A DNA stretch of 64,000 nt from IMG/VR virus record IMGVR_UViG_3300022848_000005. One strand, 5' to 3'. The notes under the pieces were generated by a model, which worked only from the letters and a program-made list of their open reading frames with translations, searched no databases and was not told the origin of the DNA. The DNA is from a virus. Taxonomy: Duplodnaviria; Caudoviricetes. Made by a program: the position numbers and the translations under genes. This document shows positions 10,403 through 53,803 of the stretch, one piece after another. Every line of letters begins with the position of its first letter. Positions within the stretch are counted from its first letter, which is position 1.

Positions 10403-10471
10403 ATGCCTAAAATTGCCGACTTAGAAGTTACCCCAAATCCAAACGCTAGGAAATTTGTACTTATATTATGA
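10403..10471 (+). pseudogene. 22-codon stub of the Nfu/NifU gene 5' end ([22 protein letters not shown])
   Basis: Near-identical to the start of 11990..12559; its TGA overlaps the sufB ATG. Confidence 0.85.
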
Positions 10472-11904
10472 ATACAGCAATTGATAACATTGTGAATCAG
10501 CCGTACAAGGCTGGATTCCACACCGAAATCGAGACGGATTCAATGGCTCGTGGTTTGAGCGAAGATGTTATTCGAACGATATCGAGCAAGAAGAATGAGC
10601 CAGATTGGTTGTTAGAGTTTCGTCTTAATGCTTACCGTCATTGGTTGACGATGACAGAGCCAAAATGGCCAAACGTGAGATATCCAAAAATTGATTTTCA
10701 GGACATAATTTATTATTCGGCACCGAAGTCTAAGGCGACCAAGAAGTCCATGGATGAGGTCGATCCAGAGTTATTGAAAACTTTTGAGAAGCTTGGTATT
10801 CCTATGAATGAGCGTGCGGCTTTGGCAGGCGTTGCTGTGGATGTTGTTTTTGATAGTGTTTCTGTAACGACCACCTATAAAGAAAAGTTAGCGGAATACG
10901 GGATCATATTTTGCTCGTTCTCGGAGGCGGTCAGAGACCATCCAGATCTGATTAAGAAGTACCTTGGCAGCGTTGTTCCTTATACCGATAATTTTTATTC
11001 TGCATTAAATTCAGCGGTTTTTACGGACGGTTCGTTTTGTTACATCCCCAAAGGTGTGAAGTGTCCGATGGATCTGTCGACTTACTTTCGCATCAATACT
11101 CAGGACTCGGGTCAGTTTGAAAGGACTCTGATTGTCGCAGAAGAGGGCAGTCAGGTGTGTTACCTAGAGGGTTGCACCGCACCTCAATTTGACACGAATC
11201 AATTGCATGCGGCGGTGGTTGAGCTCATTGCTCTTGATGATGCGGATATTAAGTATTCCACTGTGCAAAATTGGTATGCCGGAGATGAAAATGGCGTTGG
11301 TGGTATCTTTAATTTTGTGACTAAGCGAGGATTGTGCAAAGGTAAAAACTCCAAGATATCTTGGACCCAAGTGGAGACTGGATCAGCGGTGACTTGGAAA
11401 TACCCCTCGTGTATTCTTCTTGGCGATAATTCGGTGGGTGAGTTTTACTCCGTAGCGCTTACTAATCACATGCAACAAGCGGACACTGGAACAAAGATGT
11501 TCCATATTGGCAAGAATACCCGCAGCCGCATTATCAGTAAGGGTATTTCAGCGGGAAAATCTAATAATAGTTATCGTGGTTTGGTGAAGGTGTCACCTAA
11601 AGCCGATGGCGCTCGTAACTATTCTCAATGCGACTCTATGTTGATTGGCGATCTTTGTGGTGCCAATACATTCCCTTACATCGAGGTCGCCAACAAGAGC
11701 TCGATCGTAGAGCATGAGGCAAGCACATCAAAAATTGGTGAAGAGCAGATGTTTTATTTTTCGAGTCGAGGTATCGGTTCTGAAGAAGCTGTTTCTATGA
11801 TTATTAATGGATTCGTTAGAGATGTATTTATGCACTTGCCCATGGAGTTCGCGGTCGAGGCAACAAAATTACTCGGCTTAAAACTGGAAGGAAGTGTTGG
11901 ATGA
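10468..11904 (+). CDS. sufB: Fe-S cluster assembly scaffold SufB
   Basis: Full-length 478 aa with [49 protein letters not shown] and LEGSVG motifs. Confidence 0.97.
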
Positions 11905-11978
11905 TTATAAAGAATGCAGAAACGATCCTAAGTGTACATAACCTCGTCGCTAGTATTGATGGCACTCAAAAAACTTAA
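11901..11978 (+). pseudogene. sufC: 5' stub of sufC ([25 protein letters not shown])
   Basis: ATGA overlap with the sufB stop. IL(S)V.NL.A.IDG matches SufC N-termini, and sufC follows sufB in bacterial operons. Confidence 0.65.
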
Positions 11979-11989
11979 GTAAAAAAATT

Positions 11990-12559
11990 ATGCCTAAAAT
12001 TGCCGACTTAGCAGTTACGCCGAATCCAAACGCTAGGAAATTCGTACTCAAAGAACCTATAACCTATGGTGTGGCCAAGTCATATGAGTCAGCGGAAGAA
12101 GCGGTTGGGGATGAACTTGCGTCTAGTTTGTTTCAAATAGAGAGTGTGGTATCTGTTTTTTATGTCGATAATTGGATTACGGTGACGCAAGACGGCAGTG
12201 CTGATTGGAAAGATTTGATGCGCTCTTTGGCCGAACCAATTCGTTTGGCCCCTGTTGCAACTCAGGTTTCGGAGGAAGCATCGAAAACTGCCACATGGCT
12301 TCAAACGGATGAATCCAGTCTTTCCGAAACGGAACGGGCTCAGCTTGTGCAAATCAATGAATTGCTAGATGACCGTGTGAGGCCATACCTTCAAAGTGAT
12401 GGCGGTGATCTCTATGTTGTAGGCTTAGAGGATAACGTTTTAAGTGTCCATTATCAGGGCGCATGTGGTAGTTGCCCCAGTTCCTTATCTGGAACACTCG
12501 CTGGTATTGCCAGTTTAGTAAGGGAAATCGATCCTAACATCGAAGTTGTAGCGGTATAA
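11990..12559 (+). CDS. Nfu/NifU-family Fe-S carrier (Nfu N-terminal domain plus NifU C-terminal domain)
   Basis: [10 protein letters not shown]-terminal domain; VRPYLQSDGGD...YQGACGSCPSS CxxC motif. Confidence 0.92.
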   Translation: MPKIADLAVTPNPNARKFVLKEPITYGVAKSYESAEEAVGDELASSLFQIESVVSVFYVDNWITVTQDGSADWKDLMRSLAEPIRLAPVATQVSEEASKTATWLQTDESSLSETERAQLVQINELLDDRVRPYLQSDGGDLYVVGLEDNVLSVHYQGACGSCPSSLSGTLAGIASLVREIDPNIEVVAV

Positions 12560-12619
12560 GCTAGAACTGAATGACTTGAGCAACTGGCTAATTTTTCTGT
12601 TTAATTTTATTTCTACTTG

Positions 12620-12628
12620 TGTTATAAT
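12620..12628 (+). promoter_or_regulatory. Extended -10 promoter (TGnTATAAT), probably leaderless
   Basis: tgttataat lies 6 nt before ATG 12635. Confidence 0.55.
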
Positions 12629-12634
12629 CTATCT

Positions 12635-13258
12635 ATGATTATAGGAATATGTGGGCTGATTGGAACCGGCAAAGACACCGTTGCAGATTACTTGGTAAAT
12701 TTTCATGGTTACAGACGTGATAGTTTTGCTAACCCACTTAAAGATGCTGTTAGTACAATATTTGGTTGGGATAGAGATCTTGTGGAAGGCCGTACAACAA
12801 TGGCTCGCCAATGGCGTGAGCAAGTTGACGAATGGTGGTCGCAAAGACTAGGCATACCCAACTTAACTCCTCGTTATGTCTTACAACAGTGGGGTACCGA
12901 AGTTGTGCGTAAGAGCTTTCACGATGATACCTGGATTGCAAGTTTAGAAAACAAAATACGTAAAAGTAAAGACGACTCTGTTATTACAGATTGTAGGTTT
13001 CCTAACGAGATAAAAATGATTAAAGGTCTGGGCGGCAAAGTTCTCCGTGTTAAACGTGGGGAAGATCCTGTATGGTACAATACCGCAATAGCCGCCAATA
13101 ACGGGGACAAACAAGCAGAGGATCAGATGCACACCCACTTTAAGGTACACATTAGCGAATGGGCGTGGGCAAGTGCAGACTTTAATTATACTGTATTAAA
13201 CAACGGCAGTATAGATGAGCTATATGAAGTACTTAAAAATCTGGTAGTATCTCACTAG
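12635..13258 (+). CDS. Deoxynucleoside monophosphate kinase (T4 gp1-like)
   Basis: IIGICGLIGTGKDT P-loop, SFA.PLKD, PR.VLQQWGTEV.R and TDCRFPNE motifs. Confidence 0.9.
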   Translation: MIIGICGLIGTGKDTVADYLVNFHGYRRDSFANPLKDAVSTIFGWDRDLVEGRTTMARQWREQVDEWWSQRLGIPNLTPRYVLQQWGTEVVRKSFHDDTWIASLENKIRKSKDDSVITDCRFPNEIKMIKGLGGKVLRVKRGEDPVWYNTAIAANNGDKQAEDQMHTHFKVHISEWAWASADFNYTVLNNGSIDELYEVLKNLVVSH

Positions 13259-13580
13259 GTCGCCAACCTAGGTTCATATTACTTATATCAACTCCGCAAT
13301 TTAAACACACACTGATTAGGTTACTCTTATTGTTGTTGCCTAAATCTCCATCCACGTGCCAGACCATAATTTGTGCCTTGCTTTTAGAGTTGAATCCGCA
13401 CTTCTCACATTGACTCTTTTTCTTATATCCTGCTTGGTGCCACGCAGGTATTTTTGAAGGTTCTTTTCTACGAAGCCTAATACAAGAATCGCACCTAGAT
13501 CTATAGTAAATCTTGTCGTGTTTTTTGTAGTTTACAGCTACTTGGTTCCTATTACAGGCTGGGCATATTCTGCGTTGCAT
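13233..13580 (-). CDS. Small Zn-finger/HNH-like protein
   Basis: CxxC pairs plus HVDGD..NN..SNLISVCLNC; the terminal His is absent. Confidence 0.65.
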   Translation of the reverse strand: MQRRICPACNRNQVAVNYKKHDKIYYRSRCDSCIRLRRKEPSKIPAWHQAGYKKKSQCEKCGFNSKSKAQIMVWHVDGDLGNNNKSNLISVCLNCGVDISNMNLGWRPSEILPDF

Positions 13581-13641
13581 GTAGTTATTTAATAGATACC
13601 TTTAAAAGGGCGACTAATAGGTGCCATTTTGCTTATAATCA

Positions 13642-13648
13642 ATAAATA
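13642..13648 (+). promoter_or_regulatory. Late promoter motif ATAAATA for the sheath gene
   Basis: ataaatactactaatta, identical to the site before the tube gene (16935). Confidence 0.8.
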
Positions 13649-13678
13649 CTACTAATTAACATATTGAGGATTATTACA

Positions 13679-16879: not shown

Positions 16880-16893
16880 TTAAAGTACGCATA

Positions 16894-16919
16894 TAATGAG
16901 AGCCACTAGGCTCTCATTA
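16894..16919. other. Perfect 11-bp hairpin between sheath and tube genes
   Basis: taatgagagcc-acta-ggctctcatta, with no U-tract. Confidence 0.7.
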
Positions 16920-16934
16920 ATGCAGTAGTATACG

Positions 16935-16941
16935 ATAAATA
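16935..16941 (+). promoter_or_regulatory. Late promoter motif ATAAATA for the tube gene
   Basis: ataaatactactaattaggag. Confidence 0.8.
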
Positions 16942-16963
16942 CTACTAATTAGGAGACAGAAAA

Positions 16964-17602: not shown

Positions 17603-17633
17603 AAAAAGCAGGGTATAAAACCCCTGTTTTTTT
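17603..17633 (+). terminator. Terminator after the tube gene
   Basis: agcaggg-tataaaac-ccctgtt followed by a T-run. Confidence 0.7.
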
Positions 17634-17649
17634 ATGGATAAATAATAGT

Positions 17650-23645: not shown

Positions 23646-23837
23646 ATGAAGATATCTGAACTACAAAAATTAGCAGGTATCAGAGAAAAAACATCTTGTA
23701 TGGATATGGAAAACATAAGCCATACCGGTACTGAAAAGGCTAAGATAATGCGTAAGAAAAATATCCAGCCAGGCACACCTGAATGGTTTAAACTTTGGTT
23801 CAGCAGACCATATCTCACAAAAGAAAAGCCTTATTAA
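23646..23837 (+). CDS. Small conserved phage protein (ELQKLAGI...PGTPEWFKLWF)
   Basis: 63-aa ORF at the end of the operon. Confidence 0.65.
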   Translation: MKISELQKLAGIREKTSCMDMENISHTGTEKAKIMRKKNIQPGTPEWFKLWFSRPYLTKEKPY

Positions 23838-37962: not shown

Positions 37963-37976
37963 AACACATATTTAAT

Positions 37977-41090: not shown

Positions 41091-41128
41091 TTATAAAGAT
41101 AACGGATTAGTACTTAAACGGAGATAAT

Positions 41129-42286
41129 ATGAGATATCCATTAGCTTGTAGTACTTGGGATAATAAAGAACTAGAAGCAATTCAAGAAGTAATTAATACG
41201 GGTCGTTATACTATGGGTGCTCGTGTTAAACAATTTGAAAAAGAGTTTTGCGACTACTTTAAATGTGCCGACGCCGTGATGGTAAACAGCGGATCAACAG
41301 CAAATCTATTAATGTTGGCGTTATTGGCATTAAAGTACAATTTAAAAGGTGATATAATTGTGCCTGTGGTTAGTTGGTCAACAACATATTATCCATTACA
41401 ACAATATGGTTTCAAATTAAATTTTGTAGATATTGATAAAGATACGTTAAACATTGATCCTAGTAAAATAGAAAAAGCGATAACTAAAGATACTTGTGCT
41501 ATTTTTGCTGTTAATCTGTTAGGCAATTCTTGTGAGTATAAAAAACTTAATGAACTTGCAGAAAAACATAATTTATTATTGATAGAAGATAACTGTGAAA
41601 GTTTAGGTGCAATATCAGATACAGACGCTTACACCGGTACGATTGGTCTTATGGGCAGTTTTTCATTTTTCTTTAGTCATCATTTGCAAACTATGGAAGG
41701 TGGTATGATTGCTTGTCAAAGTAAAGATGACGCAGATTTCATTAGATCATTGAGAGCGCACGGCTGGTGTAGAGATTTACCAGACGATAGTAATATTTAC
41801 AAAAAAACAGGTGACAACTTTAAAGATAGTTTTACTTTTATTACACCAGGGTATAGTGTTAGACCATTAGAGATGAGTGGGGCAATAGGTAGTGTACAAC
41901 TTAAAAAATGGCCTGATATGAGAGAACAACGAGTTAAGAATGCAGATTACTTTAAAGAGAAGTTTAACGATTTTAAAGACGTTCAAATACAAAAAGAAGT
42001 AGGTAATTCTAGTTGGTTTGGATTCTCTATGGTGTTCAATGGAAATTTAACAGGTAAAAGAGATATCATTGTACAAAAATTCAAAGAAAACGAAATAGAG
42101 AGTAGACCAATTGTTGCAGGTAACTTTATGAAAAATCCTGTAATAGAATACCTTAACTATATAGATAATAAAGATTACACCGTTGCTGATTATATACACG
42201 ATAATGGATTGTTTATAGGTAATGATGTGAGAGATTTAACAGAAAATATTGATTTAGTTTACAATATAATAAAGGATATAAAATGA
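41129..42286 (+). CDS. colD: GDP-4-keto-6-deoxy-D-mannose 3-dehydratase (ColD-type, DegT fold)
   Basis: YPLA.STW N-terminus; FSHHLQTMEGG has His in place of the Schiff-base Lys, which is diagnostic of ColD; RAHGW.R.LP. Confidence 0.85.
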   Translation: MRYPLACSTWDNKELEAIQEVINTGRYTMGARVKQFEKEFCDYFKCADAVMVNSGSTANLLMLALLALKYNLKGDIIVPVVSWSTTYYPLQQYGFKLNFVDIDKDTLNIDPSKIEKAITKDTCAIFAVNLLGNSCEYKKLNELAEKHNLLLIEDNCESLGAISDTDAYTGTIGLMGSFSFFFSHHLQTMEGGMIACQSKDDADFIRSLRAHGWCRDLPDDSNIYKKTGDNFKDSFTFITPGYSVRPLEMSGAIGSVQLKKWPDMREQRVKNADYFKEKFNDFKDVQIQKEVGNSSWFGFSMVFNGNLTGKRDIIVQKFKENEIESRPIVAGNFMKNPVIEYLNYIDNKDYTVADYIHDNGLFIGNDVRDLTENIDLVYNIIKDIK

Positions 42287-43287
42287 AGACAGCATTGATA
42301 ACAGGTATAACAGGTCAAGACGGAAGTTATCTAGCAAAATCTTTATTGAATAAAGGTTATAAAGTATATGGTGGGCAGAGAAGAAGTACCACAAACAAAT
42401 ACTGGCGCTTAGATGAAATGGGTATTACAGATAATATTGAATTTGTAGAATTAGATTTAATAGATCAAGCAAACATTAGAAGAGCAATAGATGATACGAA
42501 ACCAGATGTAATTTACAATTTGGCGGCTCAATCATTTGTTGGATTATCTTTTGAACAACCTGAACTAGCTACCTTAGTTGATGGAGTGGGTGTACTGAGA
42601 ATGATAGAAAGTGTAAGACAAGTTAATCCTGATATTAAATTTTATCAAGCTTCTACTAGTGAGTTATATGGTAAAGTATTTGAAACGCCTCAAAAAGAAA
42701 CAACAAAGTTTTGGCCTAGATCACCTTATGGTGTAGCAAAGTTATTTGGTCACCACATAACAATTAACTATAGAGAAGCATATAACATATTTGCGTCAAC
42801 AGGTATTTTGTTTAACCACGAAAGTCCCATGAGGGGTGAAGATTTTGTTACAAGAAAAATATCTAAAGGTATTGCTCTATGGAAGAAAGAACAACGACCA
42901 ATTGTTTTAGGGAACATTTATGCTAAAAGAGATTGGGGCCACGCTGAAGATTTTGTTGAAGGTATGCAACTTATTATGAATCACACTAAAGCAGATGACT
43001 TTATTTTAGCAACAGGTGTGGTTAATACTGTAAAAGACTTTTTAGAAATGACACTAACGTATTTAAATATACAATATTACTGGAAAAATGATGAATGTTA
43101 TGAGAAAGATACAAATATACAAATATCTAAAACTGATAAAAAATATTTCAGACCTGCCGAAGTAGATATATTACAAGGTGATGCAACTAAAGCAAGAACT
43201 GAATTGGGTTGGACACATAAACACACAGCTCATAGTTTAATGATAGATATGGTTGATGCCGATATGAGAAGATATTGTGGAAAATAA
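42283..43287 (+). CDS. gmd: GDP-mannose 4,6-dehydratase
   Basis: TGITGQDGSYLA, YNLAAQSFV, YQASTSE, PRSPYGVAK, FNHESP.RG..FVTRKI, RDWGHA and RPAEVD. Confidence 0.97.
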   Translation: MKTALITGITGQDGSYLAKSLLNKGYKVYGGQRRSTTNKYWRLDEMGITDNIEFVELDLIDQANIRRAIDDTKPDVIYNLAAQSFVGLSFEQPELATLVDGVGVLRMIESVRQVNPDIKFYQASTSELYGKVFETPQKETTKFWPRSPYGVAKLFGHHITINYREAYNIFASTGILFNHESPMRGEDFVTRKISKGIALWKKEQRPIVLGNIYAKRDWGHAEDFVEGMQLIMNHTKADDFILATGVVNTVKDFLEMTLTYLNIQYYWKNDECYEKDTNIQISKTDKKYFRPAEVDILQGDATKARTELGWTHKHTAHSLMIDMVDADMRRYCGK

Positions 43288-44002
43288 AATATTTGTAACA
43301 ACTTTTAATAGAAGACTTTTTGATCAATATGCTCATCAACTGATTAGTAGCTATGTAGCAACTGAACAAAAGATACCTCTTTATGTTTTTGTTGAAGATG
43401 ATATTACCTATTATACTAATTTAGACAATGTACGTTATATTAAATTATTGGAAGAAGAACCTGATTTAAAAGATTTTACAGAAAGAAATAAAAGTAAAGA
43501 AGCTAATTCATTTACTTTTGATGCAGTAAGATTTTCATACAAAGTATATGCTCAAAACGCAGGAAGAAAATATGGAAATAAGATTTATTATGTGGATAGT
43601 GATTGTGTGTTCACAAAACAAATACCAGATGAATGGTTTGATGAGTGTTTGCCAGATGATAAATTTATTTCTTTTTACGATAGACCACATCAATATACTG
43701 AAACAGGATTTGTGGCATTCAATGAACGTAAAAAAGAAATCTCTAACGACTTCTTCAATCAATATACTAACTATTACAAAACAGATGAAGTGTATAAGTT
43801 AACAGCTTATACAGATTGTCATACACTAGACGCAACAAGAAATCATTTTAAAGATAATTTAAACTACTCAGAAAATATATTAGGCGATGGTAAAAACGGA
43901 CATATTATGGCTAGAGATAAGTTTCTTAATCCTTACATAGATCATAGAAAAGGTCCTAGAAAACAACAAGAGCATAGTCTAGAATGGATTCAGAATCAAT
44001 GA
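43277..44002 (+). CDS. Glycosyltransferase-like protein (DxD)
   Basis: DAVRFSYKV, YVDSD, ETGF, TDC and DHRKG.RK motifs. Confidence 0.65.
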   Translation: MENKIFVTTFNRRLFDQYAHQLISSYVATEQKIPLYVFVEDDITYYTNLDNVRYIKLLEEEPDLKDFTERNKSKEANSFTFDAVRFSYKVYAQNAGRKYGNKIYYVDSDCVFTKQIPDEWFDECLPDDKFISFYDRPHQYTETGFVAFNERKKEISNDFFNQYTNYYKTDEVYKLTAYTDCHTLDATRNHFKDNLNYSENILGDGKNGHIMARDKFLNPYIDHRKGPRKQQEHSLEWIQNQ

Positions 44003-44019
44003 AAGCAGGAAAAAGGTAA
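43999..44019 (+). pseudogene. Possible 5' stub (MKAGKR*) of a cupin gene at the right edge of the AT-rich cassette
   Basis: ATGA overlap; KAGK matches the start of the intact cupin at 45511 (MTTKAGKVWG). Confidence 0.35.
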
Positions 44020-44025
44020 AAAAGT

Positions 44026-44688
44026 ATGATTAATGTTTTTATAGGATACGACTCAAAGGAAAAGGCAGCGTTCAATGTCCTCAACTACAGTATACTTAAG
44101 AACAGTACCAAGCCTGTAAGTCTTACCCCGGTGTATCTGGAAAACATTAAAGATGACTTTGTAAGAGAACGCAATAACTTAAGCTCAACAGAATTCAGCG
44201 TAAGTAGATTTATTGTGCCACACTTAATGAACTACCAGGGCTGGGCACTGTTTATGGATTGCGACATGCTGATGACAGCAGACATTAATGAACTGTGGCG
44301 TCTGCGTGATGACCGTTATGCTGTACAAGTATGCAAACACGATTACGAGCCTAAACATAATAAAAAGTTTCTAGGACAAGTACAGACAACGTATGCAAAG
44401 AAAAACTGGTCAAGTTTTATGCTGTTAAACTGTAAGAAATGTCAAACTCTCACACCTGATTATGTTAATAAAGCAAGCGGGCTGGAACTTCACCAGTTTA
44501 AGTGGCTAGAGTCAGACGACTTAATAGGTGAGTTGCCTTTAGAATGGAACTGGTTATCGGACGAGTACGAACATAAAGATGCTGTTAAGTGTGTACACTA
44601 CACAGACGGCGGTCCCTGGTTTGAAGAATACAGACATTGTGATTATGGCGATGTTTGGTTTGACTACTACAGGGAAATTAGTCTATGA
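44026..44688 (+). CDS. GT8-like glycosyltransferase
   Basis: FIGYD..E, TEFS.SRF.VP, FMDCDML, KHDY, KNWSS, LPLEWN and HYT.GGPW. Confidence 0.8.
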   Translation: MINVFIGYDSKEKAAFNVLNYSILKNSTKPVSLTPVYLENIKDDFVRERNNLSSTEFSVSRFIVPHLMNYQGWALFMDCDMLMTADINELWRLRDDRYAVQVCKHDYEPKHNKKFLGQVQTTYAKKNWSSFMLLNCKKCQTLTPDYVNKASGLELHQFKWLESDDLIGELPLEWNWLSDEYEHKDAVKCVHYTDGGPWFEEYRHCDYGDVWFDYYREISL

Positions 44689-45530
44689 TTAGCACAGTTA
44701 CAGTAGTCTACGAACCTGAACTAGAATTACTGAAAACACAAGCACGGAGTTTTGACAACTATCTAGAAGACGTAGAAGATATTTTAGTAATAGAAAATGA
44801 CGATTGTCATTTAGGCATAGATCCGCAGTGGTGGGGTAGACACAGCGACCGAGTTAGAATTTTACGTAGAGAAGACATAGGCTACAAAGCACATGTTTCT
44901 ATTAACGGCAGAGAATCACAGCAGTTGTGTAAACTATTAGCACCAATGCAATCAACAGCAGAATGGTCAATATGGTTTGATGCTAAAACATTTTTAGTAA
45001 AACCCCTCAAGCCTAGCAGTTTATTCCGGGACAACAAATTTAGATCAAATCAAATGCCAGTGTTCGAACAGTTTAGTGAAGGTTTCGAAGTGTGTCAAAA
45101 ATTGTTAGGCTTTGCTCAAAAAGATCTGATATGGGTAGCACCAGGCGGCATGCCTTACCCAGTGAATAAAAAAGTTTTGCAAACACTAATAAGGTATGTT
45201 AAAATAACATCTAAAATGTCGTTTGTTGATTGGTTCGAAAAGTACAGTCAGTATCCGCACTTTGTGACAGAGATGATACTTTATAGTCAGTTTGTTAGAC
45301 CCGTGTTTACCTTGTATTACACTGACACTGAACCTACTTACAGGTGTGCAAATTTATCAGACTGGCAAATACCAGACATAGAGGACTTTTGGCAGAAACT
45401 TAACGATCCAAAAGTACTAACAGCAAGTATTAAAGCAGATGCTTATGATATTTTAGATATCGATCAACGTAAACAATGGCATACATATTTAGACTCAAAA
45501 GGATTACACTATGACCACAAAAGCTGGTAA
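44685..45530 (+). CDS. Putative glycosyltransferase-associated protein (GT-A-like)
   Basis: QQLCKL...WFDAKTFLVKP...TEMILYS; island context. Confidence 0.5.
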   Translation: MISTVTVVYEPELELLKTQARSFDNYLEDVEDILVIENDDCHLGIDPQWWGRHSDRVRILRREDIGYKAHVSINGRESQQLCKLLAPMQSTAEWSIWFDAKTFLVKPLKPSSLFRDNKFRSNQMPVFEQFSEGFEVCQKLLGFAQKDLIWVAPGGMPYPVNKKVLQTLIRYVKITSKMSFVDWFEKYSQYPHFVTEMILYSQFVRPVFTLYYTDTEPTYRCANLSDWQIPDIEDFWQKLNDPKVLTASIKADAYDILDIDQRKQWHTYLDSKGLHYDHKSW

Positions 45531-45864
45531 GGTTTGGGGAGTGTCAGAACTTATCCATGCAAATGGAGTTTTAGAATTCCATAGAATAGAAGCAAATGCA
45601 GGCAAGTTCTGTAGCAAACATCTACATAAAACAAAATGGAACGGCTTCTTTGTGGAAAGTGGCCGGTTATTAATTAGAGTATGGAAAAATAACTACGATT
45701 TAATAGACGAAACTGTGTTAGAAGTAGGAGACTTTACAGCAGTTAGTCCTGGAGAGTACCATCAATTTGAGGCATTAGAGGATACAGTAGCGTTTGAGTT
45801 ATATTGGGCTGAGTTCTCACATGGCGATATCGAAAGGGAAACTGTTGGCGGCTCAAAAGTTTAA
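45511..45864 (+). CDS. Cupin, mannose-6-phosphate/sugar isomerase-like
   Basis: KVWG.SE, CSKHLHKTKWNGF.VESG and PGEYHQF.A. Confidence 0.8.
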   Translation: MTTKAGKVWGVSELIHANGVLEFHRIEANAGKFCSKHLHKTKWNGFFVESGRLLIRVWKNNYDLIDETVLEVGDFTAVSPGEYHQFEALEDTVAFELYWAEFSHGDIERETVGGSKV

Positions 45865-46501
45865 CATAGTATGTGTTAGAGTAGGCGAAGCATATTCCTC
45901 AGAGTATGTGGATAGACTCTACGACATGATTAAGGCAAACTGCACCAAAGACTTTGACTTTTGGTGTATTACTGATTCGCCACACGATAACCCTAATATC
46001 AAGTTTTCAAAAATACAACCGTTAACCCCAAAGCCACGTTATATGTGGTGGTATAAGATGTATATGTTTAAATCGGATATCGGTTACACAGGTCCCACTT
46101 TTTACATAGACTTGGATGTTGTTATTGACAACTCTATAGACAAATTTTTAGAATCCTGGGACGACAGTTTTTGGATCTGTCAAGACTACAACAGGAGAGT
46201 AAAACCAGATTACCATGTTAGCAACAGTTCTGTAATGATGTTCGATCATGCCAAGTATACAAAGTACTGGGCTGAGTTTTATCAGAATCAAAAAGAAATA
46301 ATGCAGAAGTTTAGGGGAGATCAAGACTATCTCTCAGTTAAACTGAGAGAAGAAAATAAAAAGTGGTGGCCCTGGCACTGGACAATAAGCTATCGTTGGG
46401 AATACCTAGAAGGCAAAGCGCATCCTGACAATGCTATTGTGGTATTCCATGGCAATCCTAAGCCACACGAAGTTAACTGGGAGTTGGCAGATGTTAGCTA
46501 A
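45845..46501 (+). CDS. GT-A glycosyltransferase-like protein
   Basis: IVCV..G..Y..EYV..L, WW.K..MF, YIDLDVVI, NSSVM, GDQDY and FHG.PKP; probable TTG start after GAAAGGGA. Confidence 0.7.
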   Translation: MAAQKFNIVCVRVGEAYSSEYVDRLYDMIKANCTKDFDFWCITDSPHDNPNIKFSKIQPLTPKPRYMWWYKMYMFKSDIGYTGPTFYIDLDVVIDNSIDKFLESWDDSFWICQDYNRRVKPDYHVSNSSVMMFDHAKYTKYWAEFYQNQKEIMQKFRGDQDYLSVKLREENKKWWPWHWTISYRWEYLEGKAHPDNAIVVFHGNPKPHEVNWELADVS

Positions 46502-47339
46502 AGCAGACACCAAGTATGGTGAAATGCACTATTATAAAAATGATAAATTTATTGGTGCTAGTTTAGAGTTGTATGGTGAATACACAGGTTTAGAAATAGA
46601 TTACATTAAGCCTTACATACATGAAGACGATATTATCTTAGACGTCGGTGCAAACATAGGCACACATACAGTTGCGTATAGTAGTCTAGTGCCTGATGGT
46701 CAGGTAATAGCATTTGAACCTAATCAGAAAAATTACAACCTTTTAGTGCGCAACATTACGCACAACAACCTCACAAATGTACATGCTTTTCTAGGAGGTC
46801 TTTCTAATAGAGTAGGTCTAAGCACAGTTACCGACTTTGATCCCAACGAACCTGGAAATTACGGAACAATGACTGTGGGAAGTGGCACACAAGTTTGTTT
46901 TCTTAATAAATTAGATAATGTGTGCAACTTTAACAGACCCGTAAGGTTTATAAAAATAGATGTTGAAGGGGTAGAACCTAAGATTCTATTAGGAGGCAGG
47001 GATTTTATTGCACAGCACAAACCGGTAATACAATACGAGTGCATGACTAAAGAGGTTGCCCAGCCAATCGAACGTATATTTAAGAACTATTACCCTGGTT
47101 ACAACCTATACTGGATGCCAATCTTTAATTACAATGACACCAACCACAACAAAAATTCCAAGAACATATTTCTTAATAGTGGAGTTATGAATGTGTTAGC
47201 GGTACACACCCGTGACAAACAGCCTGACAACCTACAGCGTTACGACAGCTGGGAGGATAACATAGAAGTACGTAGTGAAGGCCTGCGCTTAAGTCAAAAC
47301 AAACTTATAATGAAAAAAACATATAACAAGTTTAAGTAG
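46491..47339 (+). CDS. FkbM-family methyltransferase
   Basis: LDVGANIGTH, AFEP..KN..LL and IKIDVEG.E..IL.G. Confidence 0.9.
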   Translation: MLAKADTKYGEMHYYKNDKFIGASLELYGEYTGLEIDYIKPYIHEDDIILDVGANIGTHTVAYSSLVPDGQVIAFEPNQKNYNLLVRNITHNNLTNVHAFLGGLSNRVGLSTVTDFDPNEPGNYGTMTVGSGTQVCFLNKLDNVCNFNRPVRFIKIDVEGVEPKILLGGRDFIAQHKPVIQYECMTKEVAQPIERIFKNYYPGYNLYWMPIFNYNDTNHNKNSKNIFLNSGVMNVLAVHTRDKQPDNLQRYDSWEDNIEVRSEGLRLSQNKLIMKKTYNKFK

Positions 47340-47342
47340 TAA

Positions 47343-48320
47343 CTAGCGTAAGTTACTGAGTTGTTGTTTAAACATTGTAATCAAGTAGTCTGAATACCCA
47401 TGTAAGAACCAATGGTAATTCCAAACACAAACCTCATGAGAGGTATAATACAATCCTTCAGCCTGACGTAAAGTCACAGGCAGATATGTCATAGCGGCTT
47501 GTCGCCGTCGAGAGTCAGGTAGCTCATCAAATAATAGTCCACCAAAACTGGTATAGGTTTTAAACCCTTGCGCTTCTAGATAACTCAATAGTTTCTGACT
47601 GCCTATCATAATAAAAGGTGTCATTGTAACAATAGCGTTATACGTTTTTTCAGTAATTATTCCTCGGTGTTCGTAATACTGGCTCTCACAGACAACGGCT
47701 ATCCAGGCATCCTGGTAGTTCTTGGCAATGCTTAACAAGTTTTCTGCATTATTGTAGTCGTAGTCTTGAAATGTTTTTCCAGGATACTTTAGTTCGATAC
47801 CACGTTGTTGTAGGCTAACATTCATCAGAGGGTTATTTTTAAGTTCATTAAATGTGTCTACCCTATGACGTTTAGCGATACGATTAGGAACCACAGCAAC
47901 AAAGTTGGGATTGTCTTTGGTAGCAACTTTTTGCATACGAGCCCAACAGTTTTTATAGTCCATAACAGTGTTATACTGCCAAGGACTAAACTCCACAACC
48001 TGTATACTGTCAGGGTGTGTGTCGTGCCATATACCAGCAACACCGTGATTCCACACCATAGCAACTACCTGTTTCATGTCGATTCCACGACCCTTGTAGT
48101 AATTGTGTATGGTGATTAATTCGTTAGGTATTACTGATCTGGACTTGAATGTTAGCATGTCCTGTAGTACAATAAACAGTCTAAAGTCAGGGTCAGCGAA
48201 GTCTATCTCTGGACGCTCTGGGAAGTCAACTGCCCAGCCGTCATCAGTAATGGGACCATATAGGGCACCACCGTGTACCCAGGTATGATCGACATAGGGT
48301 TTTATAATTTGATGTAACAC
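47343..48320 (-). CDS. Hypothetical glycosyltransferase-like protein
   Basis: ESQY...ITEKTY..I....PFI.IG....L.YL...GFKTY pattern; TAAATA 6 nt upstream. Confidence 0.5.
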   Translation of the reverse strand: MLHQIIKPYVDHTWVHGGALYGPITDDGWAVDFPERPEIDFADPDFRLFIVLQDMLTFKSRSVIPNELITIHNYYKGRGIDMKQVVAMVWNHGVAGIWHDTHPDSIQVVEFSPWQYNTVMDYKNCWARMQKVATKDNPNFVAVVPNRIAKRHRVDTFNELKNNPLMNVSLQQRGIELKYPGKTFQDYDYNNAENLLSIAKNYQDAWIAVVCESQYYEHRGIITEKTYNAIVTMTPFIMIGSQKLLSYLEAQGFKTYTSFGGLLFDELPDSRRRQAAMTYLPVTLRQAEGLYYTSHEVCVWNYHWFLHGYSDYLITMFKQQLSNLR

Positions 48321-48326
48321 AACTAT

Positions 48327-48341
48327 TATTTAATATAAATA
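48327..48341. promoter_or_regulatory. Back-to-back late promoters: TAAATA (minus, 48327-48332) and a perfect TATAAATA (plus, 48334-48341)
   Basis: Both lie in a 26-nt divergent gap; TATAAATA is the T4 late consensus. Confidence 0.8.
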
Positions 48342-48346
48342 CTATA

Positions 48347-49093
48347 ATGAGAGCATATCAATTTTTAACAGAAGGTCAAGGTGGATTAGCATACGAGGCG
48401 ACCGTATATGCCGCAATGCGAGCCGCTAAGATTAACGGTTTAGATTTAGGTGACAAGCCCACAGCAGGCTTTAGTAATCAAGGTTATGGTGATATCGAAG
48501 CAACATATAACGGTAAGCCTTTTAACATTGAAATCAAAGCCAGTGCATTCGATCAGATGGGAGGAACAAGTTTCCATTACAACATGGCTGGACAACAGTT
48601 AATTCCTGTAGGTCAGATAGAGCCTGATGAATTAGATATGTTGTTACAAGCCGCACAGACAAAAGCAGGCGATATAGATAACTTTCTTAAAGCCGCACAA
48701 GAATATGAAAATAATCCTAATATAACGGGGTTTCCTATTAGGGTCACTAAAGATACTAGAGAGAAACTAATAGCAGATGGCTTGCAAAAAGCAATAGCCA
48801 GTAATATTAGTGCTAAGTCTAGTTTTATTATAAAGCACTACAATAAAAAACAAGTGTATTATATACAAGTTGGTGGTTCTGGGCTATTTTACATGGGCAA
48901 GAATCCCCTTAAGTTGCCAGTACCAGAGCTACAAGGCGACATTAATATCGAATTAAGAGTAGGCTACGGTGGGTCAGGTGGTAAGCCCACAGTAACTGCT
49001 GGTATTAGACTGCAGGGTAGACTAAGAACTGAAAACGTTTCTAGTTTTACATTAGACGATCCAGGCAGTATCCAAGCATTATTCATGCAATAA
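48347..49093 (+). CDS. PD-(D/E)XK restriction-endonuclease-like late protein with a capsid-targeting-like leader
   Basis: MRAYQFLTE leader; G.AYE..V...GDIE.......IEIK catalytic pattern. Confidence 0.55.
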   Translation: MRAYQFLTEGQGGLAYEATVYAAMRAAKINGLDLGDKPTAGFSNQGYGDIEATYNGKPFNIEIKASAFDQMGGTSFHYNMAGQQLIPVGQIEPDELDMLLQAAQTKAGDIDNFLKAAQEYENNPNITGFPIRVTKDTREKLIADGLQKAIASNISAKSSFIIKHYNKKQVYYIQVGGSGLFYMGKNPLKLPVPELQGDINIELRVGYGGSGGKPTVTAGIRLQGRLRTENVSSFTLDDPGSIQALFMQ

Positions 49094-49144
49094 AATCAAC
49101 AACTTACAAACTGTGTTGACAACTTAACCGAGTGGCCTTATACT
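49094..49144 (+). promoter_or_regulatory. Sigma70 promoter (TTGACA-17-TATACT) with an upstream IHF-consensus site
   Basis: -35 at 49116, -10 at 49139; AATCAACAACTTA at 49094 fits WATCAANNNNTTR. Confidence 0.8.
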
Positions 49145-49174
49145 TATAACTGTGTCCAATAACAGGAGCAAGTT

Positions 49175-49558
49175 ATGAAAATTAGATTTATAGTAGGATT
49201 AACTCTGTTAACATTGCTGTTAACAGCAATGTATGCACATATGGCTCAAAGTGAAGAACCTTGGTGGATGTCATTTAGTCAGGAGTATAAACCTAACATT
49301 TTGTATCCGAAAATAGACCTAGAGGTTAAGGTTGTTGAAAATGCTGATGCAGAATGTAGTAAGTATGCTAAGGACATTAATTACGAGATAGAACATTGTG
49401 CCCTACAGTGGGAACCTCAAAACGGTGTACGTAAATGTACGTTAATAATGCAACGAGACAAAATTACTATGGGTGACTTCGGTCACGAATTAAGGCATTG
49501 TTTAGAAGGTGATTGGCACGATGCTAGACCCACAGAACGAATAAAACTAAAACGGTAA
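49175..49558 (+). CDS. Small exported protein with an HExxH motif
   Basis: Hydrophobic N-terminal signal; FGHELRHC; AGGAG SD. Confidence 0.6.
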   Translation: MKIRFIVGLTLLTLLLTAMYAHMAQSEEPWWMSFSQEYKPNILYPKIDLEVKVVENADAECSKYAKDINYEIEHCALQWEPQNGVRKCTLIMQRDKITMGDFGHELRHCLEGDWHDARPTERIKLKR

Positions 49559-49567
49559 AATAAAATT

Positions 49568-49596
49568 TTGACATTACTAGCAAGTGATGTTAATGT
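49568..49596 (+). promoter_or_regulatory. Sigma70-like promoter TTGACA-17-TAATGT
   Basis: The spacer carries CAAGTG in the same register as the CGAGTG motif. Confidence 0.5.
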
Positions 49597-49654
49597 AGCA
49601 GTGTAGTACACACTTTTAATTATGGCACCTTTATTATGGTATGGCAAATTTATT

Positions 49655-49831
49655 ATGGAAAACTTAAATTTTAATTTTGAAAGCATTGAAATAAGGCGAG
49701 TAGCTAATGGCTACGTTATTCAGGTGAACGGAGAAGACAATGCACAGGAGTTTGTTTACGACACAAGTCGTAAAACTCTAAAGTTTGTTCGAACTTTCTT
49801 AGAACATTCCAAGGCACAGGTGGCTGAGTAA
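49655..49831 (+). CDS. Small hypothetical protein
   Basis: IEIRRVANGYVI; downstream of a promoter. Confidence 0.55.
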   Translation: MENLNFNFESIEIRRVANGYVIQVNGEDNAQEFVYDTSRKTLKFVRTFLEHSKAQVAE

Positions 49832-51190
49832 TTGCCAGCGAAACCCGCTGAACTATTAACTCCCAGCCCTGTCCCTACACAGAATGTAAGTAATGGAGAA
49901 TATCCTCCATTAGCTCAGACGCCACAACAGCGCCTAGTACAGAGTAAGATAAACGCAGACAGTACGTTTGACGAATCTTTTAACGCTATGAACACAGTTT
50001 ATGGCCCGGGCTTCGTATACTCTAATTATGGTGACTTAAGTAAACAGTTTGTCTTTGATGTGCAGACACACTTACTTAAGGATGGGTATAAAAACCCACA
50101 GCAACTTGCACACAGGCAGTATGCACACAACTATCTAAATTCAGACGTGGAGCGTTACCCCACGTTTGATGCACAGAAGTTTGATAATTACATTAAAGAA
50201 ATATACCTAGACAGTGATACCAAACTGGCACTAATAAGTGGAACACCTGGCGATTCTGCTGATGAGGACCTGATAGATAATGATAGTATTAAGTGGGCAA
50301 GTACAGTTATTAACAATGTCTGTGGTAGTAAGCGAAGTTTTAGTCACAGCATAATACAACCTAAAGTACCTGGTTACCTAGATGAAGTGGACTACGCTAT
50401 AGAAGTCCTACAGCCAGATAGCTGGAAGTGTTATACAATAGGAACCTTTGCATACCCGACTCGACGGAATAAACAGTTTAGATTAGATGATGAAAAACTG
50501 GTCTATCCCTGGTTCGAACGAGCAGAGCGAGCAGGTATTAAAAACATCTGTGTACACAAAGGACTATTACCACCAGATTATCGAGAGTCCTGGCGAGACT
50601 TGTGGGAATACAGTACTGTTCAAGACCTCGCAAAAGCCGCTCGAGACTGGCCGAACTTAAACTTTATAATCTATCACAGTGCATTGCGTATAAGTCACGA
50701 AAACCCAGAGGATATCCTCAAGAACTTCGTTAAAACTGGTCGGATTGAATGGACAACCGACTTGTGTGATATAGTACACAAGTATGGACTTAAAAATGTT
50801 TATGCAGAACTAGGTACAAGTTTTGGTAGCATGGTTGTGCTTAATCCCCTGGTAGCAAGTGCATGGTTAGGGCAGATGCTAAACATGATGGGTGAGGATA
50901 GAATATTATGGGGTACTGACTCTGTGTGGTATGGATCACCACAGTGGCAGATAGAAGCACTACGTAGACTGGAAGTACCTGATCACATTATGCATCGTAT
51001 GGGCTGGGACAAAAACTTAGGAGAACCCGACGGCACTGTAAAGCAAAAAATATTTGGACTTAACGCCGCTAGACTGTATAATGTAGATGTTGCAAGTGCA
51101 ATAAATGATATAGATTCTAGTAAAATAGAAAAAATGCGTTTGGGGCATAGCGAACCTAGAAATAATAGATACTATGGTTATATAGCATAA
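49832..51190 (+). CDS. Amidohydrolase-superfamily (amidohydro_2-like) metal-dependent hydrolase, an auxiliary metabolic gene
   Basis: FDVQTH (DxxTH), WKCY, VHKG, IYH, YAELG and WGTDS.WYGSPQWQIEA motifs. Confidence 0.85.
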   Translation: MPAKPAELLTPSPVPTQNVSNGEYPPLAQTPQQRLVQSKINADSTFDESFNAMNTVYGPGFVYSNYGDLSKQFVFDVQTHLLKDGYKNPQQLAHRQYAHNYLNSDVERYPTFDAQKFDNYIKEIYLDSDTKLALISGTPGDSADEDLIDNDSIKWASTVINNVCGSKRSFSHSIIQPKVPGYLDEVDYAIEVLQPDSWKCYTIGTFAYPTRRNKQFRLDDEKLVYPWFERAERAGIKNICVHKGLLPPDYRESWRDLWEYSTVQDLAKAARDWPNLNFIIYHSALRISHENPEDILKNFVKTGRIEWTTDLCDIVHKYGLKNVYAELGTSFGSMVVLNPLVASAWLGQMLNMMGEDRILWGTDSVWYGSPQWQIEALRRLEVPDHIMHRMGWDKNLGEPDGTVKQKIFGLNAARLYNVDVASAINDIDSSKIEKMRLGHSEPRNNRYYGYIA

Positions 51191-51303: not shown

Positions 51304-51420
51304 ATGATACAGATAGTTATAGAAAAACTCAAAAGGTTTTATAATATATTAATAACAGCGCAAATAAAATCAGCAGAACGTCGAATTAAGGGGTATAAGT
51401 CTTTAGGTTATGTTGCATGA
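51304..51420 (+). CDS. Small basic ORF (~38 aa) not in the track
   Basis: ATG after AAGGA and TAAATA (51233); ATGA-coupled to the next ORF. Confidence 0.45.
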   Translation: MIQIVIEKLKRFYNILITAQIKSAERRIKGYKSLGYVA

Positions 51421-51560: not shown

Positions 51561-51573
51561 TAACAGCTAACCC

Positions 51574-51600
51574 AGGCGGATAATTTATCCGCCTTTTTTA
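51574..51600 (+). terminator. Rho-independent terminator
   Basis: aggcggataa-t-ttatccgcct inverted repeat followed by a T-run. Confidence 0.85.
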
Positions 51601-51629
51601 TTGACATCTTGTTAATAAACATATAAACT
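51601..51629 (+). promoter_or_regulatory. Sigma70 promoter TTGACA-17-TAAACT, probably leaderless
   Basis: ATG lies 5 nt after the -10. Confidence 0.65.
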
Positions 51630-51634
51630 TAAGC

Positions 51635-51934
51635 ATGGCAAAAATTATCAAAGATTCAAAAAAGCGTCGAAACATTCGACGTTCAATACGCACATTAACG
51701 GAGGCAGCCTTGGAAACTATATCATATATACGAGATACAATTTTAGGTTATATCTGCGAAGGTATTGGATTTTTGCAGTGCATTGCAGATAAAATTGCGG
51801 GTAAAGAACTTAGTAGCCAATTTTGGACAGGGATTTTTATTATTGTCGCCTTTAGTCTAATGTACTTTGATATGATACTGGCATTTTTTATACTGGGGTG
51901 CAGGATACTTTGGTTACTGGAGAGATCATTGTGA
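51635..51934 (+). CDS. Small membrane protein
   Basis: Basic N-terminus and a hydrophobic C-terminal segment. Confidence 0.6.
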   Translation: MAKIIKDSKKRRNIRRSIRTLTEAALETISYIRDTILGYICEGIGFLQCIADKIAGKELSSQFWTGIFIIVAFSLMYFDMILAFFILGCRILWLLERSL

Positions 51935-52185
51935 CCGATGAAGCGGAACTTAGAACTAGACCCAAATACCTTAAACACGATGTTGTGTGGAGTATAGACA
52001 AACTCTACAGAATGGCAACAGATCCATATGCAACAGGATACGAAACTTGGTCATATAAACAAGACTTACTGTTATTAAAGTGGTGGTTAGATGACCTGGT
52101 AGATCAATGTGGGACCTATGCAGACGAAGAAGAATTTAAAAAAGCACATGAAAAACGTAAAATGTGGGATACACTTAAAAAATGA
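51931..52185 (+). CDS. Hypothetical protein
   Basis: A GTGA-coupled start is preferred over 51898. Confidence 0.55.
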   Translation: MTDEAELRTRPKYLKHDVVWSIDKLYRMATDPYATGYETWSYKQDLLLLKWWLDDLVDQCGTYADEEEFKKAHEKRKMWDTLKK

Positions 52186-52514
52186 AGTATCTATGCATCG
52201 GTAATCCCACAAGTGCTACTGATGACATAACCACACGTCTGGCTGTTACTAAAAAAACCATTAACCACGGGCTTGCGATTAACATAGAGCAGGCGGGGTT
52301 TTATCACATAAGTTTAGCAGACATCAGTATATTGGAAGCAGAAACATTCGTCGAACAGTTTGATGAGTTATACTTCTTAGAACAAGCACGAGAAACATAC
52401 AGCAGTGAATCAGTATACAATAACACAAGAGCATTGCTGTTATATATAAAAAACTGGAATGTAAAACCTTTTAAGATTGTTAAAGAGTCCTGGATAAAAT
52501 GTCTGACGTATTAA
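52182..52514 (+). CDS. Hypothetical protein
   Basis: MKYLCIGN...GFYH.SL.D; coupled ORF. Confidence 0.55.
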   Translation: MKYLCIGNPTSATDDITTRLAVTKKTINHGLAINIEQAGFYHISLADISILEAETFVEQFDELYFLEQARETYSSESVYNNTRALLLYIKNWNVKPFKIVKESWIKCLTY

Positions 52515-53803
52515 AATACAAAGCACGGGTACTGGACACAAAGTCCCAGTCTTTCTGTGGTGCAAAGTGGTACGAGGCTGTGATATTTTTAGGGTCTGGC
52601 AAGACAATGAGTTGCCATCATAATCCTTATCACGAAGTAAGTGACACAGCAGTACTTGAAAACTACAAGGCAATACACAATACTTCTGAGAAGAAACAAC
52701 AACGAGCAGAGATGTTACGTGGCGAACGTCCAGAAGGCTGTAATTACTGCTGGCGTCTTGAGGATAATAACTCCGTTAGTGATCGGGTATATAAAAGTCA
52801 GAAGTTTACTGATGCTGACAATCAGTTAGCATTTGACTCAGACCCCAATGCTGACGTTGACTTACAGTCACTGGAGTTGCACTTTGACAAAGTATGTCAG
52901 ATGGCATGTAGTTACTGCCATGCAGGTTACAGTACTACCTGGGCACAGGATATAAAGCAAAATGGTGCATACGAAAATGTAGAGTCTGACAAACAGCAAC
53001 ACTACAAGTATCAGAGAAAAATAGATCAACTGTTTAAGCCTACCCAGGAAAACTTATATGTAGAAGCATTTTATAAATGGTGGGACGCAGACTTACATCG
53101 GACACTTAAAGAGTTACGCATACTAGGTGGGGAACCCTTATTGAGTCCACACATATGGCGTTTTATTGAATGGTTTAAAAGCAAAGACACTAAATGTAGT
53201 CTGGAGTTTGTAACTAACCTAGGACCCAAAGTTGATGTGCCCAGGTTCCTTAATGCTGTAGACGGCAAACAGGTTGTGGTAATGACCAGTATGGAAACTG
53301 TGGGAGAACATGCTGAGTACACCAGAGACGGGGTAGATTACGAGCTTTGGTGTAAAAATGTCGAACTCTGTCTGCAGAGCAAAACGGTGTCACGTATGTC
53401 AGTGCTGTTTACCGTAAATGCCTTAAGTGTGTTTAATATGTGCGATCTTATGGCAAAGATTATACACTGGAGGTCAGTGTACGGCAAAGACAGGATAAAC
53501 ATGAGTATTAATATCTTACGTTATCCAGTATTTCAAAACATAACAGTTTTATCTGACACTGCAAGACAACAAGTAGCCACTACTCTGGAACAATGGTTAG
53601 AACTACACGACAACTATATTACTGACTACGAGTATCAACAACTTGAGAGACTCGTAAATTATGTTAGAGTTGTTGACGCACCCGACAATTTACAAGATGT
53701 ACGCAAAGACTTTAAATCGTTCTTTACACAATATGATAAACGCAGAGGAAAAAGTTTTAAGGAAACCTTTCCTGAATTAACAGACTGGTACGGAGAGATA
53801 TAA
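52499..53803 (+). CDS. Radical SAM protein with an N-terminal twitch domain
   Basis: FCGAKW...SCHH...CNYCW; CQMACSYC, S.TW and GGEPL. Confidence 0.92.
   Translation: MSDVLKYKARVLDTKSQSFCGAKWYEAVIFLGSGKTMSCHHNPYHEVSDTAVLENYKAIHNTSEKKQQRAEMLRGERPEGCNYCWRLEDNNSVSDRVYKSQKFTDADNQLAFDSDPNADVDLQSLELHFDKVCQMACSYCHAGYSTTWAQDIKQNGAYENVESDKQQHYKYQRKIDQLFKPTQENLYVEAFYKWWDADLHRTLKELRILGGEPLLSPHIWRFIEWFKSKDTKCSLEFVTNLGPKVDVPRFLNAVDGKQVVVMTSMETVGEHAEYTRDGVDYELWCKNVELCLQSKTVSRMSVLFTVNALSVFNMCDLMAKIIHWRSVYGKDRINMSINILRYPVFQNITVLSDTARQQVATTLEQWLELHDNYITDYEYQQLERLVNYVRVVDAPDNLQDVRKDFKSFFTQYDKRRGKSFKETFPELTDWYGEI

Follow-up and report, generated by a model that had tools for sequence, protein, structure and literature searches.

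In the window analysed here, which is the whole stretch of 64,000 nucleotides (64 kb) taken from the virus record IMGVR_UViG_3300022848_000005, sequence comparison identifies the genes of the iron-sulfur (Fe-S) scaffold subunit SufB and of the cluster carrier Nfu as one insert of 2.26 kb (10356-12616), a host-derived cargo module for Fe-S biogenesis. Taken as a whole, the locus is probably best explained if this module serves in supplying clusters, chiefly to the twitch-type radical S-adenosylmethionine proteins (rSAMs) of the phage. In aquatic viromes, Fe-S assembly genes carried by phages belong to the most frequent 'metabolic' genes. The window is part of a T4-like myovirus with a GC content of about 39%, whose T4-like core genes encode a gp15-like tail protein, the tail sheath, a T4-type large terminase (TerL), gp32 and the RecA-like UvsX. 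It combines these core genes with SufB, Nfu and four rSAMs, a set of features drawn from the phages of PMC5332604.

Excision of sufB and nfu from a bacterial suf operon

All elements of the insert lie on the plus strand. Its left end (10356-10393) is neither host-like nor present in related phages and contains a perfect TATAAT (10376-10381) with a poor -35 element. It is followed by the first copy of a 68-nt direct repeat (10394-10461), which comprises a ribosome-binding site and the first 20 codons of nfu; the second copy (11981-12048) forms the start of the intact nfu gene, and the two copies thus bracket sufB. They are 93% identical to each other, and copy 1 is 95.6% identical to the 5' end of host nfu. 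The first copy gives rise to a leader open reading frame (ORF; nfu', 10403-10471) of 22 codons, in which residues 1-20 are the same as residues 1-20 of host Nfu and the TGA stop overlaps the sufB start codon (ATGA), an overlap that suggests translational coupling of leader and sufB. The sufB gene itself (10468-11904) encodes an intact, host-derived scaffold subunit. It overlaps, again by ATGA, a sufC remnant (11901-11978), a 25-codon ORF that ends before the Walker A motif and shares 17 of 23 residues with the SufC of the bacterial contig L005. The module is completed by nfu (11990-12559), by its domains an NFU1-type [4Fe-4S] carrier. With the exception of the short sufC remnant, no SufC, SufD, SufS, SufU or A-type carrier is found within the 64-kb window, as the preliminary description of this DNA had noted for SufC and SufD. 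The GC content of the insert is 44-46%, compared to 39% for the phage.

A scan of metagenome contigs yielded the donor operon on a 61-kb bacterial contig (L346, GC 44.7%), which carries iscR-like, nifS-like, sufA, sufB, sufC, sufD, sufS, sufU, nfu and Rieske genes; here nfu is the last gene of the suf operon, ahead of the Rieske-type gene. Phage positions 10467-11970 match sufB and the start of sufC of this contig with 96.9% DNA identity, and positions 11961-12561 match the end of sufU and nfu with 95.0%. The remnant DNA agrees with host sufC as far as 11970, from where it continues into the sufU end, the two blocks meeting at a common CAAA (4-nt microhomology). The donor belongs to the Burkholderiales in the sense of GTDB, as among species-representative genomes two metagenome-assembled genomes (MAGs) show 94-95% protein identity versus 83% for the next best. 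These alignments show that the phage copied the suf stretch from sufB through nfu from a Burkholderiales host and lost about 3.8 kb; since the blocks join at CAAA, a single microhomology deletion took out sufC beyond codon 24, sufD, sufS and nearly all of sufU. They likewise show that the start of nfu was duplicated ahead of sufB and that leader, sufB, sufC remnant and nfu are by their arrangement one coupled unit. In a three-way comparison of the 68-nt repeat, one change is common to both phage copies and two or three are private to each, which fits a duplication inside the phage after capture.

The breakpoints are confirmed independently by RNA. Contigs of four marine/aquatic metatranscriptomes match both blocks at 95-99.7% and, precisely where the phage sequence breaks off, extend into sufC, sufU and the sufA side. 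They are host transcripts: all of them run into bacterial flanks, and the phage flanks 9600-10466 and 12562-13300 are not covered by the RNA runs. An old capture, considered on the basis of 80% nucleotide identity and saturated synonymous sites between phage sufB and the MAG contigs L004/L005, has been superseded by the L346 operon and the host RNA contigs.

To place the insert in its phage context, 80 related-phage loci were fetched via the neighbouring deoxynucleoside monophosphate (dNMP) kinase. In all 80, a homologue of the structural gene at 9600-10355 is followed by the dNMP kinase, and in none does the insert occur. In the 18 closest loci (80-92% protein identity in the flanking genes) the gap to the dNMP kinase measures about 17 nt. 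In more distant relatives the slot (10356/12616) is empty or filled by other small cargo genes. The occupants seen there (L166, L185, L212, L215, L227, L232, L241) are an SGNH-like hydrolase, an exonuclease-like protein, an HNH endonuclease, a conserved 122-residue ORF, or nothing. By synteny, the junction between the 9600-10355 gene and the dNMP kinase is a cargo hotspot, and the insert represents lineage-specific cargo that occupies a variable slot. SufB is likewise absent from 26 larger related fragments (0/26), and a NifU domain from the 19 of them that were searched for it (0/19); an A-type carrier is present in 9 of 19 searched.

Both proteins of the module appear to be intact members of their families, in agreement with the preliminary description, which had named a scaffold and a carrier with its CxxC preserved. 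SufB scores 894.7 bits against NF008773 (cut-off 717) and 647.8 bits against TIGR01980 (cut-off 346.4), and it also matches the SUFBD_core and SufBD_N domains. In an alignment to 5awf_A, the positions matching E. coli R226, N228, C254, Q285, W287, K303, C405 and E432-H433-E434 are conserved. Among these, we take C254, Q285, W287, K303, C405 and E434 to be needed for sulfur relay or cluster binding; this list of important residues reportedly stems from Yuda et al. 2017. Nfu matches Nfu_N with 70.3 bits and NifU with 66.3 bits (Pfam cut-off 27) and has the CGSC motif (CxxC) in its C-terminal domain. Relative to L346, sufB is 96.9% identical in nucleotides and 98% in protein, with a nonsynonymous divergence (dN) of 0.0076, a synonymous divergence (dS) of 0.124 and a ratio of 0.06; for nfu (95.0% nucleotide identity) the values are dN 0.0115, dS 0.20 and again 0.06, and part of the divergence behind both ratios may fall on the bacterial branch.

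The differences between phage and host sufB, 44 sites in total, are unevenly spread. The first 347 nt (10468-10814) show zero synonymous differences from L346, while the remainder shows about one per 30 nt, which suggests a recent homologous exchange between phage and host copies. When the two MAGs serve as outgroups, six amino-acid changes map to the phage SufB branch alone, and five of them (A412S, T413I, L428M, L432S, D437G) fall within 26 residues (11701-11779 of the window), clustering around the E-H-E motif (permutation p=1.6e-4). Because synonymous changes are not raised around residues 412-437, this cluster is not a foreign recombination tract. The five changes are the only hint that the phage copy may exceed a plain duplicate.

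Radical SAM genes of the window and of SufB-bearing relatives

The four rSAM genes were assigned with NF033640 (N_Twi_rSAM, twitch domain-containing radical SAM protein; cut-off 170 bits), and all lie on the plus strand. The first (30624-31571), a short paralogue of 315 residues, scores 118 bits and is thus below the cut-off. The second (32089-33243; 234.7 bits, with SPASM-like residues 13-75) is located directly upstream of uvsX, the third (34314-35690; 300.7 bits) directly downstream of it, and the fourth (52499-53803; 286.5 bits) belongs to an operon preceded, at about 51.6 kb, by a sigma-70-type promoter. The first three genes thus lie around uvsX, within a series of overlapping genes that follows gp32. 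Between the first and the second, at 31568-32089, lies a gene for a 173-residue SDR-like protein that looks truncated and yet is a conserved small protein; the related phage G041 (see below) has two homologues of it (200 and 201 residues) directly after its SufB. All four rSAMs possess the CX3CX2C motif, GGEP and four N-terminal Cys, the Cys-rich twitch region already described from the letters alone, and the seven Cys are invariant across 30 aligned homologues. From this conservation we infer that each protein has enough Cys for two clusters, so that the earlier suggestion of more than one cluster per rSAM is a fair reading.

For the fourth rSAM more than 3300 homologues were found, many of them on contigs of 200-360 kb. 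Its AlphaFold2 (AF2) model reaches a predicted local distance difference test (pLDDT) score of 90, and a fold search of the PDB returned generic rSAM matches only, with template modelling (TM) scores of at most 0.36. An assignment of function by fold was therefore dropped, the matches to SkfB, anSME, DesII, BlsE, MoaA and viperin all being generic. Related fragments carry 0-7 copies of the N_Twi rSAM family, and by this distribution the rSAM genes are an older, widespread component of the related phages. Between the third and the fourth rSAM gene, at 36378-51190 on the plus strand, lies an island for sugar or small-molecule tailoring with methyltransferases, a carbamoyltransferase, a DegT aminotransferase, a GDP-mannose 4,6-dehydratase, glycosyltransferase-like genes, a cupin and an amidohydrolase.

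When IMG/VR was scanned with a SufB profile, 93 viral contigs matched, and gene content was read in the best 80 of these 93. Among these best 80, 37 have SufB without SufC or SufD in the flank examined, 33 have SufB with SufC, often together with SufS and SufA, and 10 have SufB, SufC and SufD. Single-protein scans of IMG/VR with SufB or Nfu gave bacterial-looking SufB contigs only, or nothing. Judged by their genes, several of the SufB-bearing contigs are relatives of the window phage and rich in N_Twi rSAMs, counted here as genes above the NF033640 cut-off: G041 (328 kb, complete) has 14, G058 (138 kb) 11, G052 (236 kb) and G053 (340 kb, UvsX 71% identical to that of the window) 9 each, G062 (95 kb) 8, G055 (139 kb) 7, G048 (25 kb) 6 and G032 (108 kb) 3. 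Their SufBs are 60-84% identical to one another and to the SufB of the window, which for so conserved a protein points to at least five separate SufB lineages. Since most of these sufB genes match the GC content of their phage flanks, they appear to be long-resident in most relatives. Judging by sequence divergence, rSAM-rich jumbo phages have gained SUF components on several occasions.

The fullest example is G041 (IMGVR_UViG_3300020477_000990). Here, a co-directional island (L332:2399-19127, about 62.4-79.1 kb of the record) encodes, in this order, a BtuB-like TonB-dependent receptor, a desaturase, SufB (903 bits), two SDR-like proteins, a B12-dependent rSAM methyltransferase, SufC (241 bits, above the cut-off), a 192-residue mini-SufD and four tandem twitch rSAMs; SufS and an A-type carrier are encoded outside the island. 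The island pairs cofactor-dependent enzymes with cofactor-supply genes, and a phage-encoded receptor of the B12/iron type stands beside a B12 enzyme. The Microcystis phage MaAM05 (L248, MW495066.1) was rejected as a comparable SufB case, as it shows a full sufBCDS-iscU operon beside panB/panC. The end of its record (261.8-273.9 kb) looks like bacterial DNA, and the record may be chimeric or misassigned.

Some further features of the window concern its expression and its neighbouring genes. Upstream of structural genes (13600-13663, 16900-16963, 17630-17649), a motif consisting of ATAAATA and then CTACTAATTA recurs and likely represents a late promoter. The exact T4 consensus TATAAATA occurs at two sites in 64 kb, which is rarer than chance, and early-type sites resembling TTGACA-N17-TATAAT are located ahead of 8423, 49175, 51635 and 55407. 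An HNH endonuclease gene (23834-24361, minus strand) is located just upstream of the large terminase gene, in the opposite orientation.

Proposed function of the module

According to the cluster-supply reading, the phage would make extra host-type SufB, which would pair with host SufC plus either host SufD or a second SufB and would receive its sulfur from host SufS/SufU. Since sufC, sufD and sufS are not encoded in cis, phage SufB would have to use host partners. It is expected to join host SufC/D because it is near-identical (98% in protein) to the host protein and has kept the residues checked, and this near-identity argues for a drop-in use. Extra Nfu, also made by the phage, would hand finished [4Fe-4S] clusters to apo-proteins, a transfer for which the Nfu family is known. 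The main clients would be the twitch-type rSAMs of the phage, each predicted to bind two clusters, in glycan or small-molecule tailoring islands; the rSAMs are singled out because SUF genes were repeatedly acquired by relatives rich in N_Twi rSAMs. That the insert is a host-derived module which plugs into the host SUF system we regard as highly probable. Whether it is there mainly for the phage rSAMs is, from gene content, an almost evenly balanced question, the chief rival being a general upkeep of the host. The preliminary description had proposed that the phage subunit either joins or reprogrammes the host SufBCD complex. Joining is what the 98% protein identity and the kept residues lead one to expect, while for reprogramming only the five clustered substitutions speak.

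Several observations weigh against this reading. The module is surrounded by structural genes, with about 18 kb between it and the nearest rSAM gene, and its upstream region has neither a T4 late-promoter consensus nor a good sigma-70 -35 element. No phage-specific transcript occurs among the matching RNA contigs, which are all host-flanked and hence uninformative on the phage copy. Host-type components add capacity but no specificity for phage clients. An Fe-S supply 'matched to' the rSAM set, as claimed earlier, is not borne out by the nearest phages: the insert is absent from the 80 syntenic loci, sufB and nfu are missing from the 18 closest among them, and none of the 26 fragments contains it, although related fragments with up to 7 N_Twi rSAMs, which have neither SufB nor Nfu, occur. 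KVP40-like vibriophages carry 2-5 copies of the N_Twi rSAM family and show no match to SufB or Nfu. Conversely, nine SufB-bearing contigs of at least 80 kb have only 0-1 N_Twi rSAMs, and one SufB-free fragment has seven.

In line with these cases, SufB status makes no difference to the density of rSAMs in the 28 contigs of 80 kb or more (Mann-Whitney p=0.58), in a test in which nearly all records are fragments and relatedness is uncontrolled. Only with a threshold of at least 8 rSAM copies, set post hoc, is p=0.049 reached. Among SufB-negative relatives, the presence of an A-type carrier and of rSAMs yields a Fisher p=0.14, which is confounded by fragment size. Of the co-occurrence of sufB with rSAM copy number that had been anticipated, there remain at least five SufB lineages in rSAM-rich relatives, set against the rank test and the lack of the genes in the closest relatives. 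The correlation is thus suggestive, by virtue of independent exemplars, and not demonstrated.

Which other explanations can account for the insert? That it is an assembly chimera, joining phage and host reads at similar sequence, deserves hardly any credence. Host and phage copies are 95-97% identical, and Qin et al. 2026 warn that such regions need manual curation; the host operon, however, has no leader-sufB-sufC'-nfu arrangement, phage and host sufB are distinguished by the 44 sites, and ten per-run assemblies of salt-lake metagenomes (2017-18) contain 98-100% of the words sampled across 9600-13300, junctions included, seven of them all words. With four further salt-lake runs containing 74-92% of these words, the arrangement is found in 14 runs over two years. 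This persistence also speaks against the idea of a neutral passenger, i.e. host DNA picked up recently and by accident in a recombination-prone slot, of no selective value and decaying. In keeping with it, the capture is recent, the GC content of 44-46% has not yet shifted to the 39% of the phage, sufC is already broken, the slot has unrelated cargo in relatives, and the synonymous-free first 347 nt of sufB imply that exchange with the host is ongoing. Yet both retained genes are intact with a dN/dS of 0.06 (part of that divergence perhaps falling on the bacterial branch), the deletion left the two reading frames exactly undamaged and a coupled leader was gained, and in other jumbo phages SufB was independently acquired and long retained, with a GC content matching its flanks. 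We therefore hold a mere passenger to be very improbable.

A selected module may nevertheless serve other ends. In a more general role, extra SufB and Nfu would keep the Fe-S enzymes of the host (respiration, central metabolism) supplied after host shut-off or under oxidative stress and so sustain energy for phage production, with no special tie to the phage rSAMs. Such maintenance of the host is in accord with both proteins being essentially host proteins (95-97% nucleotide identity), with the placing of SufB by the 2026 preprint among the host-like metabolic genes (amoC, oprP, HpnH, cytochrome c) of group C amoC-phages, with virome studies that take Fe-S genes as a stress response (PMC8940887), and with relatives that have many rSAMs and manage without SufB and Nfu. 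It leaves unexplained, though, why SUF genes recur in rSAM-rich jumbo phages and are interleaved with rSAM genes in G041, and why the operon was trimmed to exactly the scaffold subunit and the type of carrier that serves two-cluster rSAMs (PMC9585516); we consider it a tentative, rather unlikely account. More doubtful still, indeed improbable, is a SufB with altered function, in which the phage copy diverges so as to change the host SUF complex, for instance its SufC coupling or choice of partner. The location of five of the six phage-branch changes within 26 residues, around the E-H-E motif and where the C-terminal helical domain begins, would fit; they are, however, just five conservative-to-moderate changes in a protein that is otherwise 98% host-like, and local relaxation of constraint would give the same pattern.

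Beyond the supply of clusters to phage rSAMs as such, one could suppose that jumbo T4-like phages rich in rSAMs time and again assemble cofactor supply lines of their own, and that the locus, with a suf operon newly taken from the host and by now reduced to SufB and Nfu, represents an early stage. The five SufB changes, which may lie beside the cluster-ligand motif and the presumed SufC-contact helix, would then bias the host SUF system towards phage clients, and the G041 type would represent an older stage. We consider this extension unlikely at present; if it is true, G041-like relatives would hold a phage-adapted set of SufB, SufC and mini-SufD embedded among rSAM genes, with a BtuB-like receptor and a B12-dependent rSAM next to it.

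Comparison with known Fe-S supply systems

As the donor operon is known, it is visible which of its parts were kept (SufB, Nfu) and which were discarded (the SufC ATPase, SufD, the SufS desulfurase, SufU), and this choice points to the steps that limit Fe-S supply in the infected cell. Foreign Fe-S enzymes often require added biogenesis capacity (D'Angelo et al. 2022, PMC8896826). The locus and the SUF-plus-rSAM islands of relatives jointly bear on whether this applies to foreign two-cluster rSAMs, a matter of importance for their expression in biotechnology.

Compared to the E. coli SufBC2D complex (PDB 5AWF) and to SufB2C2, which can act as a scaffold without SufD (PMC12584684), the SufB of the window matches in sequence, domains and key residues; the difference is that sufC, sufD and sufS are lacking in cis. 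The Nfu of the window has the same Nfu_N, NifU and CxxC architecture as NFU1/NfuA, and human NFU1 re-supplies the auxiliary cluster of lipoyl synthase, a two-cluster rSAM (PMC9585516). By analogy, rSAMs with an auxiliary cluster are the likely clients here as well, with the difference that the putative clients are twitch rSAMs of the phage.

Host-like SufB has also been reported from 269-285-kb group C amoC-phages, where it was listed but not analysed (Qin et al. 2026 preprint, 10.64898/2026.06.18.733297). These are jumbo phages with 36-39% GC whose SufB is near-identical to that of their betaproteobacterial host, as the SufB of the window is host-like, too. The preprint makes no mention of Nfu, a sufC remnant or twitch rSAMs, and its host is the freshwater BJGV01, whereas the window phage comes from a salt lake. 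There is no amoC within the window, and a search of the two closest MAGs for amoA/amoC gave no match, with search controls that were equally silent. G041 belongs to the same clade as the window phage (TerL 55%, UvsX 70%, syntenic structural block) and likewise combines SufB with N_Twi rSAMs. It differs in having a fuller SUF set (SufS, A-type carrier, SufB, SufC, mini-SufD) that is long resident, with a GC content equal to that of the genome, and interleaved with rSAM genes, and in having no Nfu.

That viromes contain Fe-S assembly genes (sufA, iscU, nifU, sufE) has long been known (PMC5332604, PMC8940887), and T4-like environmental genomes with an A-type carrier or IscU and up to 12 rSAM genes were described by Nishimura et al. 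2017, who proposed the same functional link (PMC5332604). The window phage resembles these phages as an aquatic T4-like phage with Fe-S biogenesis genes, many rSAMs and the same interpretation; it differs from them in that a SUF scaffold subunit and Nfu, recently cut from a host suf operon, take the place of the A-type carrier or IscU. The idea of a supply line has therefore already been published for related phages, and the locus is a well-documented new example of it, not a new principle. What is added here is a donor operon that matches near base for base, the breakpoints and the deletion, the coupled leader, the clustered SufB substitutions and the repeated entry of SUF genes.

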